Assembly: GCA_016200255.1 (NCBI GenBank) | Contig: JACQFA010000039.1 | Location: forward strand, 13,678 to 77,677 | DNA length: 64,000 nucleotides | Direction: 5' to 3' | DNA from: Nitrospirota bacterium | Lineage (GTDB): Bacteria > Nitrospirota > Nitrospiria > JACQBZ01 | Part shown: one piece after another, positions 37,211 through 44,771 of the stretch | How positions within the stretch are numbered: the stretch's first letter is position 1 | Layout of the letters: each line of letters starts with the position of its first letter | Made by a program: the position numbers and the translations under genes | Notes under the pieces: model-generated | What the model saw: only the letters and a program-made list of their open reading frames with translations | Databases searched by the model: none | Told to the model about the DNA's origin: nothing

Positions 37211-37310
37211 GGAATCGTACCTCCTGAATTTAATGTTCCGCTGGGTCTATTTTAGTATGGGCGGGTCTGAATTACAAGACCCAATCAACCGGGTCGGTCT
37301 GATTTAGGAT

Positions 37311-37883
37311 CTACGCGGGCAGGCTTTTGGGGAAAGCACCTTCAAAGAAATTCCGTTCGGCATCGGTTAACACAATGCGCGACGAGGGGTCCGGCGGGAT
37401 GACCAAGACGGGAACGGCAGGCGGGCCGGCTCTGCGGCGGGGAACCCCGACTGGATCCAACAGCAGCGTCTGTTGATGTTCGAACCCAAGAACGCGATAT
37501 TGATAAAGTTCGATATCCAGACCCGTCAGGGCAACGGCTTCCTGAAAAACAGATGAAAAGCCGGGGGCGATCAAAACGACGCGGGGAGATTGAGACGACT
37601 CCGCCCCGCACTTGGAAAACAACCGGACCAGCAACGACCGGTGCCGGTTCAGCCAGCCGATCTGTCCGAGGGCCCTGACCAAGATCGCATCGTCTTCATG
37701 AAGGGTGGAAATCAACAGCACAAAACACCGATCCTGATCAATGGCCAGACAAAGCGGACCTGACTCGGAGCTCAAACCCGATTCCAGCAATTCTAGCCCC
37801 CCGGTCAGATCATCCAACTGGGTCAGGATCATGTTCTGAAGGACGGCGGGATCATGAAGAGAAACTCGATGCAGTTTCATCAT
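37311..37883 (-). CDS. Hypothetical protein, last gene of the ParA-like operon
   Basis: Translationally coupled to the upstream gene by an ATGA overlap. 190 aa with no confident domain. The segment GPLCLAIDQDRCFVLLISTLHEDDAILV is weakly roadblock/LC7-like. Confidence 0.5.
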   Translation of the reverse strand: MMKLHRVSLHDPAVLQNMILTQLDDLTGGLELLESGLSSESGPLCLAIDQDRCFVLLISTLHEDDAILVRALGQIGWLNRHRSLLVRLFSKCGAESSQSPRVVLIAPGFSSVFQEAVALTGLDIELYQYRVLGFEHQQTLLLDPVGVPRRRAGPPAVPVLVIPPDPSSRIVLTDAERNFFEGAFPKSLPA

Positions 37884-38824
37884 CCACCGATCATATCCAC
37901 GGTGCGTTGCAGACGGCCAAAAAACGAATAGGCGGTTCCCGACCGATTCGAGTCCCCCCCGACTCCCGCGAGCAGATTCCTCGCCACGCCTGAAAAACCG
38001 GCGGCGGCTTTCGAAGCCTGAGACAGAATGGTCAGAGGAACCTTCGCGGTCAAAGAACGCTCAATGAAGGGATCATCCGGAATCATCCCGTACCATTCCA
38101 GCGATTTTCCGAGAAATTGAAGGACCGCATCGCTCAATCGTTTCATGCCGGCCGCCGCCGCGGCCGCGTCACGATCTCCAAACACCACGAGCCCGATCCG
38201 GAGATCCTGTTGAAGCTGATACAAATACTTACAGACCTGATAGGTCTGCAAGAGCGTCTCGGAGTCCAGATCCACCGTCAGAACCACTCCCTGAACAAGG
38301 CGCACCCATCTCTGAAATGCGCCGCTCTCCTCATAAACGGCATGGATCAATATCAATTCGGCATCCTCTTCCTCCTTGCGAAGGACCTGCGAGAGAATAT
38401 CCCGCTCCTCCGCGGCGAATCCCTGAAGATCGTCCGATCGCAGTTGAAAGCTCAAGAGTTTCATTCCCAGGGGTCCTTCGACCGCGATCTGTTTCTGAGG
38501 CTGCTCCAGCAAGTCGTTGAGTGACGGATGGATCTGCACGGTTCCCAGCACCTCGTCCATCGACGGCACGGGCGCCGTTTCGATCGCCAATACGCGTTTG
38601 CCGGCCCGCGCCAATTCAACACCCAGGTTGGCCGTAAAAAAAGCCGACGGCCATCGAGGCACAAGGCTCATGGCCAGCCAAACCCGGGTATCGGATGTCG
38701 GTCGCTTCGCCTGTTTCCGAGCATCGGGCCGGGCCCGGTCCAGGGACGGAGCGGAAGAAACACCGGACAGAAACAGATGGGAAATGTCTTCGAGACCTTT
38801 CCCCAGTCTTTTTTTAGCACTCAT
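37880..38824 (-). CDS. Degenerate ParA/MinD-like protein lacking a Walker A motif, with a ParB-like N-terminal peptide
   Basis: The N-terminus MSAKKRLGKGLEDI resembles the ParB/Spo0J N-terminal ParA-activating peptide. Residues ~40-100 (WLAMSLVPRWPSAFFTANLGVELARAGKRVLAIE) align with ParA [34 protein letters not shown], but the P-loop is replaced. There is an ATGA overlap with the upstream parA-like gene. Confidence 0.55.
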   Translation of the reverse strand: MSAKKRLGKGLEDISHLFLSGVSSAPSLDRARPDARKQAKRPTSDTRVWLAMSLVPRWPSAFFTANLGVELARAGKRVLAIETAPVPSMDEVLGTVQIHPSLNDLLEQPQKQIAVEGPLGMKLLSFQLRSDDLQGFAAEERDILSQVLRKEEEDAELILIHAVYEESGAFQRWVRLVQGVVLTVDLDSETLLQTYQVCKYLYQLQQDLRIGLVVFGDRDAAAAAAGMKRLSDAVLQFLGKSLEWYGMIPDDPFIERSLTAKVPLTILSQASKAAAGFSGVARNLLAGVGGDSNRSGTAYSFFGRLQRTVDMIGG

Positions 38825-39723
38825 CCATTCGTCTCCGATTTAAAGACGGATCGTTTCGACGGATCCGTCAGGATTTCCTCGATCAGAATCGGTCCCAGGT
38901 ACTTTTCGGCCTCGTTTTCGTACAGTACCGACATCGTTTGAGCCGCGGTCGCGCCCACCGGCAGACTTTTTTCCAGCGCAACAACCTCCTGAGCCAGCGC
39001 GGCATAGTCCGCGGCGCCGTGGGCCCCGGGATCATACTCGGTGATCGGCAGCCCGTGGCTTGCGGCCTCGCGCAACCGGGTATTATTACGGATCACGGTT
39101 TTGAACGTACGCTCCGAAAAATGCCGCTGCACCTCGCCCAAAACCTCCCGGGTGAAACGCACGCGCAGGTTGACCATGGTCGCCAAGGCCCGAACCGTCA
39201 CTTCATGACCGGTATGCCGTGCCACGACATCCACGATCTCGATCAACTTGGCCAAACCATGCAGAGAAAAGAAACCCATCTCGACCGGAACGATGGCTTC
39301 ATCGCTGGCGCGCAACGCGTTGAAGGTCAGCAGGCCCAGACTCGGCGGCGAGTCGATGATGACATAATCATACGAGTGACGGGAAGATTGAATCGCGGAG
39401 AGCAACCGTTGCTCCTTCTGTGGAACGGAGCTTAAAAGCTGTTCGACCGAACTGAGGGTCACATTGGCGGGAGCGACGTCCAGGTTGGGACTGATCGCCC
39501 CGCAAATCACATCGTCGATGCAGGTTTCCTGCGTCAAGACCTCGGTCATCCCTTTCAAAAGATGCTCCGGTTTCAGATTCAATCCCAGGGACGCATGGCC
39601 CTGGGGGTCCAGATCCACCAGAAGCACCCGCCGGTTGAGCCGCGCGAGACAGGCCGACAGATTAATGGCCGTTGTGGTCTTGCCGCAGCCCCCCTTTTGA
39701 TTAATGACGGCGATCGTGCGCAT
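38821..39723 (-). CDS. ParA/MinD-family P-loop ATPase (deviant Walker A KGGCGKTT)
   Basis: MRTIAVINQKGGCGKTTTAINLSACLARLNRRVLLVDLDPQGHAS...; Walker B YVIIDSPPS. The start ATG is preceded by AAAGGAGGAG. The track ORF starts at an upstream TTG. Confidence 0.85.
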   Translation of the reverse strand: MRTIAVINQKGGCGKTTTAINLSACLARLNRRVLLVDLDPQGHASLGLNLKPEHLLKGMTEVLTQETCIDDVICGAISPNLDVAPANVTLSSVEQLLSSVPQKEQRLLSAIQSSRHSYDYVIIDSPPSLGLLTFNALRASDEAIVPVEMGFFSLHGLAKLIEIVDVVARHTGHEVTVRALATMVNLRVRFTREVLGEVQRHFSERTFKTVIRNNTRLREAASHGLPITEYDPGAHGAADYAALAQEVVALEKSLPVGATAAQTMSVLYENEAEKYLGPILIEEILTDPSKRSVFKSETNG

Positions 39724-39746
39724 CGGCTCCTCCTTTTTCAAAAGGA

Positions 39747-40412: not shown

Positions 40413-41132
40413 CTATAGAAAATGGACCAAAGAGAGTATCTCGATCAGATTACTGATTGAGACCACCCCCTCGGGTTTGTTCGGACCCCGAGATCGATCA
40501 AGATAAATCGGGGTGAGTCCGGCCCCGCCTGCGCCCCGGACATCGTCCTCGACACTATCGCCGACATGAACCGCTTCACGGGGCAGAAGACCATTTTGCT
40601 GAAGCGCCTTCCGAAAGATGACTGGATCCGGTTTTGCGGCGCCTTCCCGACTGGAGATTTGAATGGAGTCAAGATACTCAAAAATCTCGAGATCCGTGCA
40701 GACCGTCAGAAGTCGGGAATCGAAATTTGAGATGATTCCCAGGATAAAACCCGCCTTCCTGAGACTCTGCAGCGCCTCGCGTGTTTCGGGATAAAGCTCC
40801 CATCCCCGAATGCCGGCAAACGCCCGGAAAACCCCTTCAAAGTAGTCGTCAAATTTTCGGATCATCCCGACCCGCTGGAAAACCTCCCGGACAACCCCGT
40901 GCCACCATTCTTTTTCAGAATGCCTGAGAAGACCGGACTGGAGTCGTGAAAACGCCAGCGGCGGCGCTTTGGGAAAGATATCGCGAAAGGCCGCTTCAAT
41001 GGCCTCCGGGGAGGCCTTCACCCCGTAGGGTTTTGCAAGCTCCCAGTAAATCTGTCCGACGCCGCCCCGCACACGGAACAGCGTTCCCACCGCATCGAAA
41101 AAAATGGCCTTGGCATAAATCGGGCTGGACAT
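40413..41132 (-). CDS. HAD-superfamily hydrolase
   Basis: AIFFDAVGTLF motif I and ...HVGDSVEDDVRGAGGAG motif IV. The start was chosen at MSSPIY. Confidence 0.75.
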   Translation of the reverse strand: MSSPIYAKAIFFDAVGTLFRVRGGVGQIYWELAKPYGVKASPEAIEAAFRDIFPKAPPLAFSRLQSGLLRHSEKEWWHGVVREVFQRVGMIRKFDDYFEGVFRAFAGIRGWELYPETREALQSLRKAGFILGIISNFDSRLLTVCTDLEIFEYLDSIQISSREGAAKPDPVIFRKALQQNGLLPREAVHVGDSVEDDVRGAGGAGLTPIYLDRSRGPNKPEGVVSISNLIEILSLVHFL

Positions 41133-41133
41133 A

Positions 41134-41682
41134 CTATAGTCGGGCCAGGACGCCCCGATTGACCTCCTCCATCTTGGAGCGTCCTTCCAGAATCTCAACC
41201 AGTTTCATCGCAAACTCCATGGCCGTGCCGGGAGAGCGGCTCGTGACGATGGAACCGTCCACCACAACCCGTTCCTCGCTGTACTTTGTCTCCGATAGAT
41301 CCCCCTGAACCGACGGATGACTGGTGACCTTTTTGCCCTGAAGAAGTCCGACGGCCGAAAGAACGGTCGGCGCCGCACAGATGGCCGTGATGTAGCCGCC
41401 CCGGGCCGCCAGCTCCTGAAGAATTTTATGGACGCGCGGATCGTTCTTTAAATGTTCCGCTCCGGCCGATCCTCCCGGGAGAACGATCATGTCAAACCGG
41501 CGAACGGCCACGTCATCCAACAAGACATCCGGCGCCACCTTGATTTTGCTTCTGCCTTCGATTTCACCCCGAACCGTTCCGGCCACCGTCACCTCGATTC
41601 CGGCCCGGCGAAGAATGTCGATCACGGTGATCGCCTCGATCTCTTCGAATCCAGGCGCCAACGGAATCAGAACCTTTTTCAT
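41134..41682 (-). CDS. DJ-1/PfpI-family protein
   Basis: MKKVLIPLAPGFEEIEAITVIDILRRAG...ICAAP conserved nucleophile-elbow Cys. Confidence 0.85.
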   Translation of the reverse strand: MKKVLIPLAPGFEEIEAITVIDILRRAGIEVTVAGTVRGEIEGRSKIKVAPDVLLDDVAVRRFDMIVLPGGSAGAEHLKNDPRVHKILQELAARGGYITAICAAPTVLSAVGLLQGKKVTSHPSVQGDLSETKYSEERVVVDGSIVTSRSPGTAMEFAMKLVEILEGRSKMEEVNRGVLARL

Positions 41683-42918: not shown

Positions 42919-43031
42919 CGCGCGGACCGTCCGCACCTGTCGGTGACCGCCGACACCCGGCTGCGCAGATGCATACTTGATTCTTCCTCCCCATCGGGAT
43001 CATAATCTCCTTGGGTAAGGAGAACCTGACC

Positions 43032-44771
43032 GTGTCTGTGATCATCCGGGTGCTGGCCGTGCTGTTGTTGTTGAACCTGGCGAGCGTGTTTCCGCCACTG
43101 GCCTACGCAGAAGAAGAAACGTCCGACCCCTACGGAACGGTGCGGCTTTCCCGCATCAGCCTCATCGAGGGGGAGGTACTCCTTCAGCGGGGCGATGATG
43201 AAGAGTGGGTGGCGGCCTCCGTCAACATGCCGCTTCGCCCTCACGATAAACTCTGGGCGACCGACGACGCTCGTGCCGAAATCCAGTTTGACGACGGGAC
43301 CGCGGTTCGCCTTGCCGAAAATTCCAATCTGGACCTCGTAAGCCTGGAGCCGGACTGGATCCATCTCCAGCTCACATTGGGCGTGGCCAGTTTCGCGGCC
43401 CGGGCCTCTTTCCGCGCGGGCGCGCGCCAGCCCTTTCTCGAGATCGACACCCCGCAGGCCACGGCCCAGGTCACTCGTTCGACGGCGTTTCGGGTGGATG
43501 TGGCGGAGGACGGTTCAACCGTCATCACGGTCCGTGACGGTGAGGTGGAACTGAGCCGCGATGAGGAGCCGATCATGATCGCCGCCGATCAACGCGTCGC
43601 GATCGAGGGAGGCGACTCCCCGGACTATCTATTGGAAGCGGCCGAGCCGCCGGATGACTGGGACCGATGGAATAAAGATCGCGATACCCAACGGGCCCGG
43701 GCCGCGGACCATGAGCATCTCCCCTCCGGTACCGAGATGGGGGTGACGGAGTTGAATACCTACGGCAACTGGAATCAGGTCCAGACCTACGGCTGGGTTT
43801 GGATCCCCCAAGTGACCGCGGGTTGGACTCCCTATCATATCGGCCGATGGGTCTGGATGGAGCCGTGGGGCTGGACCTGGGTCTCCTACGAACCATGGGG
43901 TTGGCTCCCCTATCACTATGGCCGGTGGGTCATGGTCGGAGGCAGGGGATGGGTCTGGGTGCCGGGTCCGACTCTTGGAATTTGGACGCCAGGCTGTGTT
44001 CGATTTTTTTATGGGCCGAACTGGGTGGGCTGGGTGCCGCTCGGACCGGGCGAGGTCTACTATTACTATCCCGGCGCTTCCGTGAATATCGATATCAACC
44101 TCGTCAACTATCCTGTCCCGGGGGCGGCGATCGTGATGTCCCGGCGTCGCTTCGTCACGGGCCTGCCGGAGGAAGAAAGGTTTATTCCGCCCAAAGATCC
44201 GATTCGGGCCGGGCGGGTGGCGGTCGGTCCGCCGCCGGTCGTGCCGACACGCGCCAGCCTGCATCCCGCGCCCGAGACAGCGGTCCCGGCGGATCGGCTT
44301 CCGCCCCAAACGATCCATCGCCCGGTGGTCTATACCCGCACCCCGCCGGCTCCGCCGCCCCTCTTCGAGAACCGGGTAAAGGAAATTCAGGGCGTCGTCA
44401 CGCAAGGCCGTCCCCCCGCCGCGCCCTCGCTTCCGGAGAAAGGTGTACCGGGTGCCGAAGAGCGTCGCGCCGCAAGCGGGAAAATCCGCAAAGACATCAC
44501 GGTCAGGAAAATGATCGCACCCTCTACGCTCTCGACCTTTCCAAACCGGACGCCGCGCCCGCCGGAGGAGCGCGCCGCGCCGAGTCATGAAGCCAAGAAA
44601 AGGCAACCCTCTCCTCCCAAGAACGTTAAGTTGGCGAGGACACCTTCGGAACCCTCCGCTCCGCAAACATTGGAGGGACGAACACAACAAGGCCGGCCCC
44701 TCTATCGGAAGCCGCCATCCAACCCCGCCCCCGCGGTTGTTCCTCCCCCCCAAGGCGACGGATCGCACTAA
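43032..44771 (+). CDS. FecR-domain secreted protein with a Trp-rich repeat region and a Pro-rich C-terminal tail
   Basis: An N-terminal signal peptide, then FecR-like VRLSRISLIEGEVLLQRGDDEEW...AEIQFDDGTAVRLAENS. The middle reads WVWIPQVTAGWTPYHIGRWVWMEPWGWTWVSYEPWGWLPYHYGRWV and the C-terminal 200 aa are Pro/Ala-rich. The start was chosen at the GTG after an AAGGAG RBS; the track ORF begins at a TTG at 43011. Confidence 0.65.
   Translation: MSVIIRVLAVLLLLNLASVFPPLAYAEEETSDPYGTVRLSRISLIEGEVLLQRGDDEEWVAASVNMPLRPHDKLWATDDARAEIQFDDGTAVRLAENSNLDLVSLEPDWIHLQLTLGVASFAARASFRAGARQPFLEIDTPQATAQVTRSTAFRVDVAEDGSTVITVRDGEVELSRDEEPIMIAADQRVAIEGGDSPDYLLEAAEPPDDWDRWNKDRDTQRARAADHEHLPSGTEMGVTELNTYGNWNQVQTYGWVWIPQVTAGWTPYHIGRWVWMEPWGWTWVSYEPWGWLPYHYGRWVMVGGRGWVWVPGPTLGIWTPGCVRFFYGPNWVGWVPLGPGEVYYYYPGASVNIDINLVNYPVPGAAIVMSRRRFVTGLPEEERFIPPKDPIRAGRVAVGPPPVVPTRASLHPAPETAVPADRLPPQTIHRPVVYTRTPPAPPPLFENRVKEIQGVVTQGRPPAAPSLPEKGVPGAEERRAASGKIRKDITVRKMIAPSTLSTFPNRTPRPPEERAAPSHEAKKRQPSPPKNVKLARTPSEPSAPQTLEGRTQQGRPLYRKPPSNPAPAVVPPPQGDGSH

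Follow-up and report, generated by a model that had tools for sequence, protein, structure and literature searches.

A MinD-fold pseudo-ATPase with a ParB-like N-terminal tag is a probable adaptor of an orphan ParA in Nitrospirota

Results

Gene layout of the locus

The subject of this study is a protein of 314 amino acids encoded within a 64,000-nucleotide stretch of DNA from a Nitrospirota bacterium (assembly GCA_016200255.1, contig JACQFA010000039.1, positions 13,678 to 77,677; hereafter the window). The protein, here called pseudo-MinD, belongs to a co-directional run of minus-strand genes that encode, in this order, a MerR-type helix-turn-helix (HTH) protein, an orphan ParA ATPase similar to chromosomal Soj, pseudo-MinD itself, and a protein with the fold of the NucS/EndoMS nuclease domain (Table 1). 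The open reading frame (ORF) of pseudo-MinD is genuine, with an ATG start and a GGAGA Shine-Dalgarno sequence ca. 8 nt upstream, and an identical copy of the protein is on record from a Nitrospirae metagenome-assembled genome (MAG). An earlier reading of the window (the original prediction) had placed it at 37880..38824, which is correct, with the gene lying on the minus strand. The ORF of the adjoining ParA could be extended upstream to a TTG at 39741. At two junctions, i.e., between the ParA stop and the pseudo-MinD start and between the pseudo-MinD stop and the start of the NucS-like gene, the codons overlap as ATGA, a pattern typical of translationally coupled subunits.

Table 1. Genes of the cassette in the window, elements of the proteins they encode, and one upstream neighbour.
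Feature	Position	Strand	Basis or remark
HAD-family hydrolase	40413..41198	minus	Pfam Hydrolase E=1e-23; upstream neighbour, membership in the system uncertain
MerR-type HTH protein, 159 aa	39747..40226	minus	Pfam MerR_1 E=6e-14; heads the cassette in the window's Nitrospirota subclade
Orphan Soj-like ParA ATPase, 300 aa	38821..39723	minus	AAA_31 E=7e-54; ATG at 39723, ribosome-binding site AGGAGG
Pseudo-MinD/FlhG-like protein, 314 aa	37880..38824	minus	tag, disordered linker, predicted dead ATPase fold, C-terminal FF helix
Tag, pseudo-MinD residues 4-20, KKRLGKGLEDISHLFLS	38765..38815	minus	conserved, portable; holds the ParB-type motif L7-G-K9-G-L11-x-x-I14
Linker, pseudo-MinD residues 21-43, Pro/Ser/Arg-rich, disordered	38696..38764	minus	no column conservation in the alignment
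PRWPSAFF, pseudo-MinD residues 56-63, at the deviant Walker A site (KGGxGK[ST])	38636..38659	minus	motif columns against FlhG-like P0051 and the window ParA
C-terminal FF helix, pseudo-MinD residues 299-314, YSFFGRLQRTVDMIGG	37883..37930	minus	alignment and structure model
NucS/EndoMS-like PD-(D/E)xK-fold protein, 190 aa	37311..37883	minus	catalytic residues all replaced
Acidic-FF tail, residues 171-182 of the NucS-like protein, VLTDAERNFFEG	37338..37373	minus	

Fold and active site of pseudo-MinD

The NCBIfam profile minD_arch matches residues 63-285 of pseudo-MinD with an E-value of 7e-8, which is below its curated cutoff, and Pfam returns only a sub-threshold match to CbiA. Structure prediction with AlphaFold2 (AF2) from 22 homologues, a check that the original prediction had called for, gave a MinD/FlhG fold with a predicted local distance difference test score (pLDDT) of 80, in which residues 1-43 are disordered (pLDDT <50). 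A Foldseek search of the Protein Data Bank (PDB) with this model listed FlhG first (4rz2; E=2.7e-17, TM-score 0.82), followed by MinD, FleN, and Soj, the matches ranging from 1e-17 to 1e-10 in E-value. As modelled, pseudo-MinD has the SIMIBI/MinD alpha-beta fold. The body had originally been described as aligning residue by residue with the neighbouring ParA, and the shared fold is borne out by the minD_arch match, the AF2 model, and the Foldseek search, but the pairwise statement went too far: BLASTP between the two proteins finds a single 20-residue stretch, the very segment cited in the original prediction, with 9/20 identical positions and a non-significant E-value of 0.05. The nearest canonical relatives of the body are FlhG and MinD, not the adjoining ParA, and pseudo-MinD is therefore no recent duplicate of that ATPase.

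All residues that define the ATPase motifs are replaced. Where canonical proteins read SGKGGVGKTA in the Walker A columns, pseudo-MinD has SLVPRWPSAF, and PRWPSAFF indeed occupies the column of GKGGVGKT or KGGCGKT, as had been proposed from the sequence of the window. Likewise, ILDADLG of switch I is replaced by AIETAP and VLIDTEAG of Walker B by ILIHAVYE. This removes the signature lysine, the Walker A Lys/Thr, the Asp-x-Asp of switch I, and the Walker B Asp, and both dimerization as an ATP sandwich and ATP hydrolysis are predicted to be lost. The earlier suggestion of a catalytically dead ParA fold agrees with these replacements, with the qualification that the body resembles FlhG/MinD and does not copy the adjoining ParA. 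KGGxGK[ST] occurs in 0 of the 38 MinD-like representatives that carry the tag described below. Degeneration is graded and fullest in the clade of the window, since K-S, DxD, or the Walker B Asp persist in some distant clades. Across at least five phyla, members of the pseudo-MinD family are encoded by intact ORFs and share conserved non-catalytic motifs.

At the C-terminus, F301 and F302 are nearly invariant and the model has a helix at residues 301-313. This helix (SFFGRLQRTVDMI) aligns with the C-terminal FFWKRLLDF of a canonical FlhG-like relative (P0051), i.e., with the position of the membrane-targeting helix of MinD and FlhG; a C-terminal membrane-targeting sequence is present in FlhG (PMC12826062). 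In distant pseudo-MinD clades, the C-terminal helix is acidic. The FF helix may be a membrane anchor or act as a latch within the molecule.

The N-terminal tag and its likeness to ParB

Pseudo-MinD begins with MSAKKRLGKGLEDISHLFLS. The 17 residues that we call the tag (KKRLGKGLEDISHLFLS) hardly vary among 21 orthologues, the most distant at 23% identity, and the next ca. 25 residues are unconserved. In place of the tag, the canonical relative P0051 with its intact P-loop has the FlhG motif DQAxxLR. Within the 64-kb window, pseudo-MinD is the single case of LG[KR]GL in frame at a gene start.

The original prediction had compared this N-terminus to the peptide by which ParB/Spo0J activates ParA. 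Within the motif through which M. xanthus ParB binds ParA, the hydrophobic residues L11, L15, L18, and I19 around a central R13 bind and activate ParA; the central position is Lys in ca. 50% of ParBs, and a ParB peptide of 20 residues suffices for DNA-dependent stimulation of the ParA ATPase (PMC12462528). The tag has the same spacing, with L7-G-K9-G-L11-x-x-I14 corresponding to L11-G-R13-G-L15-x-x-L18 of the M. xanthus protein. Its distance from Met1 equals that of the motif in H. pylori ParB, which reads MAKNKVLGRGLADIF (general form L-G-R/K-G-L-x-x-hydrophobic). ParB N-termini taken from PDB sequences are MAKNKVLGRGLADIFPEI for H. pylori, RGLGRGLSALLGEV for C. crescentus, and SGLGRGLEALLPK for T. 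thermophilus. Like the ParB/Spo0J peptide, the tag is situated at the extreme N-terminus, unstructured, and basic, and it shares the core L-G-[R/K]-G-L-x-x-[aliphatic], e.g., GLGRGLEALL in T. thermophilus ParB. The likeness to ParB therefore holds at the level of the motif, in its spacing and in comparison with the ParB N-termini of the PDB, but homology to ParB cannot be demonstrated from the sequences. Since profile searches do not connect the tag and ParB, the resemblance may reflect convergence or the ancient capture of a peptide.

Occurrence of the tag on unrelated proteins

A census of the tag was obtained by exhaustive HMMER search of 1.84e9 (1.84 billion) representative proteins with a 40-column N-terminal profile (E<=1e-3), and the carriers were sorted with hidden Markov models of the protein bodies only; a word-indexed homologue search with the tag profile gave three fragments only, and the exhaustive search was used instead. 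The tag was found in 69 cluster representatives, nearly always at the N-terminus. Their bodies are pseudo-MinD in 38 cases, a NucS-like fold in 20, and other or fragmentary in 11, the last including a DUF4912 plus Glucodextran_B protein and a coiled-coil protein. The tag is thus found on at least four unrelated bodies, and its carriers share no other domain. A chance low-complexity match, which had been named beforehand as an outcome that would speak against the ParB comparison, is not what these data show: the motif is nearly invariant in the 21 orthologues and recurs in 69 representatives among 1.84e9.

The tag profile also matches P0109, a DivIVA-domain protein of 636 amino acids, in four internal stretches (best 388-415) rather than at the N-terminus. 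This match may be a low-complexity artefact or mark another client.

Conserved linkage to ParA and association with glycogen genes

For comparative genomics, 31 loci (L001-L031) were compiled from the encoding contigs of relatives and a scan of GTDB species genomes. They come from Nitrospirota, Zixibacteria, Gemmatimonadota, Omnitrophota, Rokubacteria, Acidobacteria, and one Pseudomonadota MAG. The tagged gene directly adjoins an orthologue of the window ParA in 31/31 loci as well as in the window.

Outside the Nitrospirota subclade of the window (the window, L004, and L012-L015) and L030, this ParA carries a CBM_48/AMPK1_CBM domain at its C-terminus (L001-L003, L005-L011, L016-L029, and L031; e.g., L020:3262-4362 and L023:4868-5980). 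The ParAs of the subclade and of L030 have a short unrelated tail instead, and the window ParA is 42-68% identical to its CBM48-bearing orthologues. The CBM48 domains contain a pattern FNNW...YKF...DGxW...N, which we take to represent the glycogen-binding residues of AMPK-beta. In the Zixibacteria/Gemmatimonadota and Omnitrophota loci, a GH57 branching enzyme (Glyco_hydro_57 plus BE_C) adjoins or lies near the cassette. Loss of CBM48 from ParA has left the tag unchanged in the clade concerned, and the carbohydrate-binding module is therefore not the target of the tag. From these comparisons, the window cassette would be a derived, CBM48-less version of a multi-phylum, glycogen-linked system.

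Three Omnitrophota loci carry the tag on both pseudo-MinD and a second protein composed of DUF4912 and glucodextranase domain B (L021:8523-9965, L022:7758-9230, and L023:8592-10130; P0084). The latter adjoins a GH57 enzyme; in L021, it is encoded immediately upstream of the branching enzyme at L021:10126-11751. Several tagged proteins may therefore be clients of a single ParA.

Several variations of the cassette were seen alongside. The ParA-CBM48 gene of L010 is split into ORFs of 122 and 232 amino acids (L010:1042-2102), a split that may stem from a frameshift or an assembly error or may mark a pseudogene. In L024, the Pseudomonadota MAG, pseudo-MinD (L024:6001-7119) has a Pro/Ser-rich repeat linker of ca. 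100 residues between tag and body, and 2 kb upstream (L024:2020-2499) there is a gene for a stand-alone CBM48 protein whose N-terminus is repetitive and rich in Ser/Thr/Ala. The gene directly upstream of ParA encodes a MerR protein also in L004 and L012-L015, where the HAD hydrolase gene is likewise conserved upstream, and a 66-residue version of MerR in L008/L009/L020. Zixibacteria and Gemmatimonadota (L001/L005/L007/L016/L018) have a small DUF3467 protein upstream of ParA where Nitrospirota have MerR.

The NucS-like protein and its acidic tail

The NucS-like gene follows pseudo-MinD in most loci. The AF2 model of its product in the window (pLDDT 77) matches the PD-(D/E)xK domain of NucS/EndoMS in Foldseek searches (5gkj and 2vld, E of about 1e-4), i.e., the fold of the C-terminal domain of NucS, but the protein lacks the N-terminal domain of NucS/EndoMS. 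At the catalytic D...E-x-K positions, the window protein has C, I, and T; both acidic residues, but never the Lys, are kept in other clades. Judging from these replacements, nuclease activity of the NucS-like protein is improbable.

The loci of Rokubacteria and Acidobacteria lack pseudo-MinD and have the tag joined directly to the NucS-like fold, which gives a two-component version of the system (L025:5911-6588, L026, L028, L029:5938-6588, and L030:5947-6588). These tagged NucS-like proteins stop right after the domain and have no tail. By contrast, every full-length untagged NucS-like protein ends in an acidic-aromatic tail, L[TS]xxE[RI]xxF[FM], and is encoded after pseudo-MinD; the tail reads LTDAERNFFEG in the window and, e.g., LTPEEIAEFM or ISDEELSALLE elsewhere. 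Since tag and tail are mutually exclusive and the tail co-occurs with pseudo-MinD, pseudo-MinD is probably an adaptor. The simplest reading of these gene patterns is that its body probably holds the NucS-like protein by the tail and provides the ParA tag in trans. The tail also resembles the EIDAL region of FliM, which we take to read LSQxEIDALL; we regard this as a lead and not as a test.

The adjacent ParA

The closest solved structures to the window ParA are those of chromosomal ParA/Soj proteins, i.e., M. xanthus ParA (8ray, 5e-50) and T. thermophilus Soj (1wcv, 3e-42). When the residues of M. xanthus ParA were mapped onto the window protein and 18 orthologues, the signature and catalytic lysines, D58, D60, and the Walker B Asp proved invariant in all of them, and the position of the DNA-binding R238 is occupied by R or K. 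In the pocket for the ParB peptide, hydrophobic character is conserved at L150, G151, L152, L155 (here Phe), and L187. The motif 2 sequence of the family is DPQGH, and its invariant His takes the place of an Asn that belongs to the catalytic site of chromosomal ParA (N64 in M. xanthus). As far as the mapped residues indicate, the pocket of this family is related to that of chromosomal ParA yet distinct from it, which is expected because the system must avoid cross-talk with chromosomal ParAB.

Other features of the window

The wider neighbours of the cassette are ordinary chromosomal genes, encoding UDG, SDR, Rieske, Zn-ribbon, HAD, DJ-1, rhodanese, and FecR proteins. Among them is a protein of 586 amino acids composed of FecR and DUF6600 with a long Pro-rich C-terminal half (43011-44771), which is unrelated to pseudo-MinD. 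Centromere-like repeat arrays were sought on both sides of the cassette, with only two short two-copy matches as the outcome, and the parS consensus has 0 matches in the 64-kb window at <=3 mismatches. A 16-nt direct repeat occurs twice (37259-37306; GGGCGGGTCTGAATTA and GGGTCGGTCTGATTTA, 32 nt apart) in the small space immediately downstream of the NucS-like gene; it may be due to chance or be a regulatory or terminator element.

Discussion

Pseudo-MinD as a putative adaptor of ParA

We consider it probable that pseudo-MinD is a pseudo-ATPase adaptor for the adjoining orphan Soj-like ParA. With its residues for ATP hydrolysis, dimerization, and non-specific DNA binding intact, this ParA probably cycles, as other ParAs do, on the nucleoid. 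The tag at the basic, disordered N-terminus of pseudo-MinD would dock on the ATP-bound ParA dimer and stimulate hydrolysis as the ParB peptide does, a step to which the motif match, the conservation of the pocket, and the strict gene linkage point. The MinD/FlhG-fold body, predicted from its sequence to be unable to bind or hydrolyse ATP, would be a scaffold, and given the exclusivity of tag and tail it probably holds the NucS-like pseudo-nuclease via the acidic-FF tail, as FlhG does with the EIDAL motif of FliM. The three genes would be translationally coupled via their ATGA overlaps. That pseudo-MinD might act as a partner or adaptor of the adjacent ATPase had already been put forward in the original prediction, and comparative genomics strongly supports it through the constant adjacency to ParA, the portability of the tag, and the exclusivity of tag and tail.

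Several observations weigh against this interpretation. The resemblance between tag and ParB spans only ca. 8 residues; the fourth hydrophobic residue of the ParB motif (I19) corresponds to an invariant Ser, after which the tag continues with a specific SHLFLS extension. No ParB was retrieved by the tag profile among the 1.84e9 representative proteins, and a 24-residue tag profile found no ParB among PDB sequences either, only a chance peptidase match (E=1.9). On the side of ParA, the residues Y81 and E117, which receive the central Arg/Lys in M. xanthus, are Thr and Leu in the subclade of the window, though kept in most orthologues, and D110 and V116 of M. xanthus lack conservation throughout this ParA family. 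The contact between the tail and pseudo-MinD, in turn, is read from gene patterns alone. Finally, GH57, CBM48, DUF4912, and DUF3467 are absent from the 64-kb window according to phmmer searches of its whole length, so a glycogen cargo cannot be transferred from the wider family to this locus.

Alternative explanations

One could instead regard pseudo-MinD as a regulatory pseudo-subunit that forms a heterodimer with ParA via the canonical face and sequesters or inhibits it, with the tag only raising the local concentration. The two proteins share a fold, their translational coupling suggests stoichiometric complexes, and switch I DxD, the Walker B Asp, and P-loop K-S are partly kept in less degenerate clades. 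However, an ATP-sandwich dimer requires that each of its subunits contribute a signature Lys and a P-loop, and both are missing in every tagged member. Moreover, pseudo-MinD is dispensable in Rokubacteria and Acidobacteria, where the NucS-like protein bears the tag, which fits an adaptor better than an obligatory half-dimer. We therefore regard a pseudo-subunit as unlikely.

It is similarly improbable that the tag does not contact ParA but targets its carriers to the membrane, a glucan surface, or a hub protein, or is a degradation or localization signal, with ParA merely a co-functioning neighbour. Such a role would be consistent with the failure of the tag profile to retrieve ParB, the hydrophobic nature of the SHLFLS extension, and the altered equivalents of Y81 and E117 in the window ParA. 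However, the spacing of the tag matches the ParA-binding helix of ParB, its place at the extreme N-terminus ahead of a disordered linker is that of the corresponding element in ParB, McdB, and other ParA partners, and the tagged gene adjoins the same ParA orthologue in every locus. The tag also persists after the loss of the glucan-binding CBM48, on carriers that have no other domain in common.

A third alternative, in which the gene has nothing special to do with ParA and represents an FlhG/MinD paralogue in decay or a regulator of flagella or division, is largely refuted and very hard to maintain, because despite the FlhG or MinD-like labels given to relatives by Joint Genome Institute pipelines and FlhG as the best structural match, there is no DQAxxLR motif, no flagellar or min gene lies nearby, and an intact ORF with conserved non-catalytic motifs and strict ParA synteny is found across at least five phyla. 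Two known systems were also considered as identities of the locus and rejected, i.e., a chromosomal parAB locus, as there is neither ParB nor parS, and flagellar FlhG, as both the DQAxxLR motif and a flagellar context are missing.

Comparison with known systems

The adaptor reading can be set against several known systems. ParB/Spo0J offers the tag-like motif and, with Soj, a close relative of the window ParA; unlike ParB, pseudo-MinD has neither parS nor the ParB/Srx CTPase (ParBc) domain and HTH, for which no match was found in the protein, and the Ser and the SHLFLS extension set its tag apart. FlhG (YlxH/FleN) is like pseudo-MinD in combining an N-terminal element with a MinD fold, and its amphipathic FF-type helix at the C-terminus may have a counterpart in the FF helix of pseudo-MinD. 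The N-terminal enhancer helix of FlhG, with the motif DQAxxLR (PMC12826062), stimulates FlhF, another SIMIBI nucleoside triphosphatase, and the protein also binds FliM through the latter's short EIDAL motif (PMC12826062; bioRxiv 10.1101/2022.04.21.489128), which parallels the proposed binding of the NucS-like tail by pseudo-MinD. However, FlhG is an active ATPase with KGGVGK[ST] whose DQAxxLR motif is aimed at the GTPase FlhF, while pseudo-MinD appears dead, has a ParB-like motif, and would target ParA. A flagellar context with flhF was found neither in the window, where the neighbours are MerR, ParA, NucS-like, HAD, Rieske, SDR, and similar proteins, nor in the loci of relatives.

ParA partners generally use a basic, disordered N-terminus (PMC10241942). 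McdB, PomX, MinE, and other non-ParB partners are encoded beside their ATPase and have a charged N-terminal peptide that provides specificity and stimulation, leaving the remainder for cargo (PMC10241942, PMC11407121). Pseudo-MinD shares the features of this class in that its gene adjoins that of the ATPase and its N-terminus (residues 1-43) is basic and disordered. Among the peptides of described partners, none is known to be a near-invariant 17-mer common to several unrelated clients in one locus. We know of no ParA or MinD partner that is itself a pseudo-ATPase of the ParA/MinD fold. Our literature searches for such a partner, for ParA in connection with CBM48 or glycogen, and for DUF4912 found nothing relevant, nor did they yield a description of the 17-residue tag or the whole system, and in databases these proteins are called "hypothetical" or, generically, "chromosome partitioning protein". 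A ParA with a partner that bears an N-terminal activating peptide is already well established; the elements for which we found no description are the pseudo-ATPase partner, the tag, and ParA-CBM48.

A possible multi-phylum positioning system

For the wider family, ParA with a glycogen-binding CBM48 and the same tag on pseudo-MinD, NucS-like, DUF4912/glucodextranase-B, and coiled-coil clients would form one system, whose ancestral job was probably to arrange glycogen granules, or the enzymes on these, with respect to the nucleoid or to partition them. We tentatively propose, as a possibility that we hold with less confidence than the adaptor role itself, that this is an undescribed positioning system of several phyla. 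In it, nucleoid-binding ParA-CBM48 would organize or partition glycogen granules and enzymes, and the ParB-type tag of 17 residues would recruit interchangeable clients. Pseudo-MinD would be the first ParA partner with a dead fold of this kind, reusing the peptide-binding mode of FlhG to hold a second pseudo-enzyme.

ParA/MinD ATPases are a general bacterial means of positioning large cargos, and many of them are orphans whose partners are too diverse to recognize. A pseudo-ATPase that shares the fold of the motor would be a new class of partner, and a short, sharply conserved, portable ParA tag is directly searchable and could serve synthetic positioning as a "luggage tag". ParA-CBM48 encoded beside GH57 branching enzymes is a testable candidate for the spatial organization of glycogen granules or enzymes, for which we found no such mechanism described. 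The lineage of the window displays a stepwise degeneration in which ParA lost CBM48, the MinD-like protein its ATPase motifs, and the NucS-like protein its catalytic residues, and pseudo-MinD is best seen as an adaptor in a cassette of three or four genes that derives from a glycogen-linked system.

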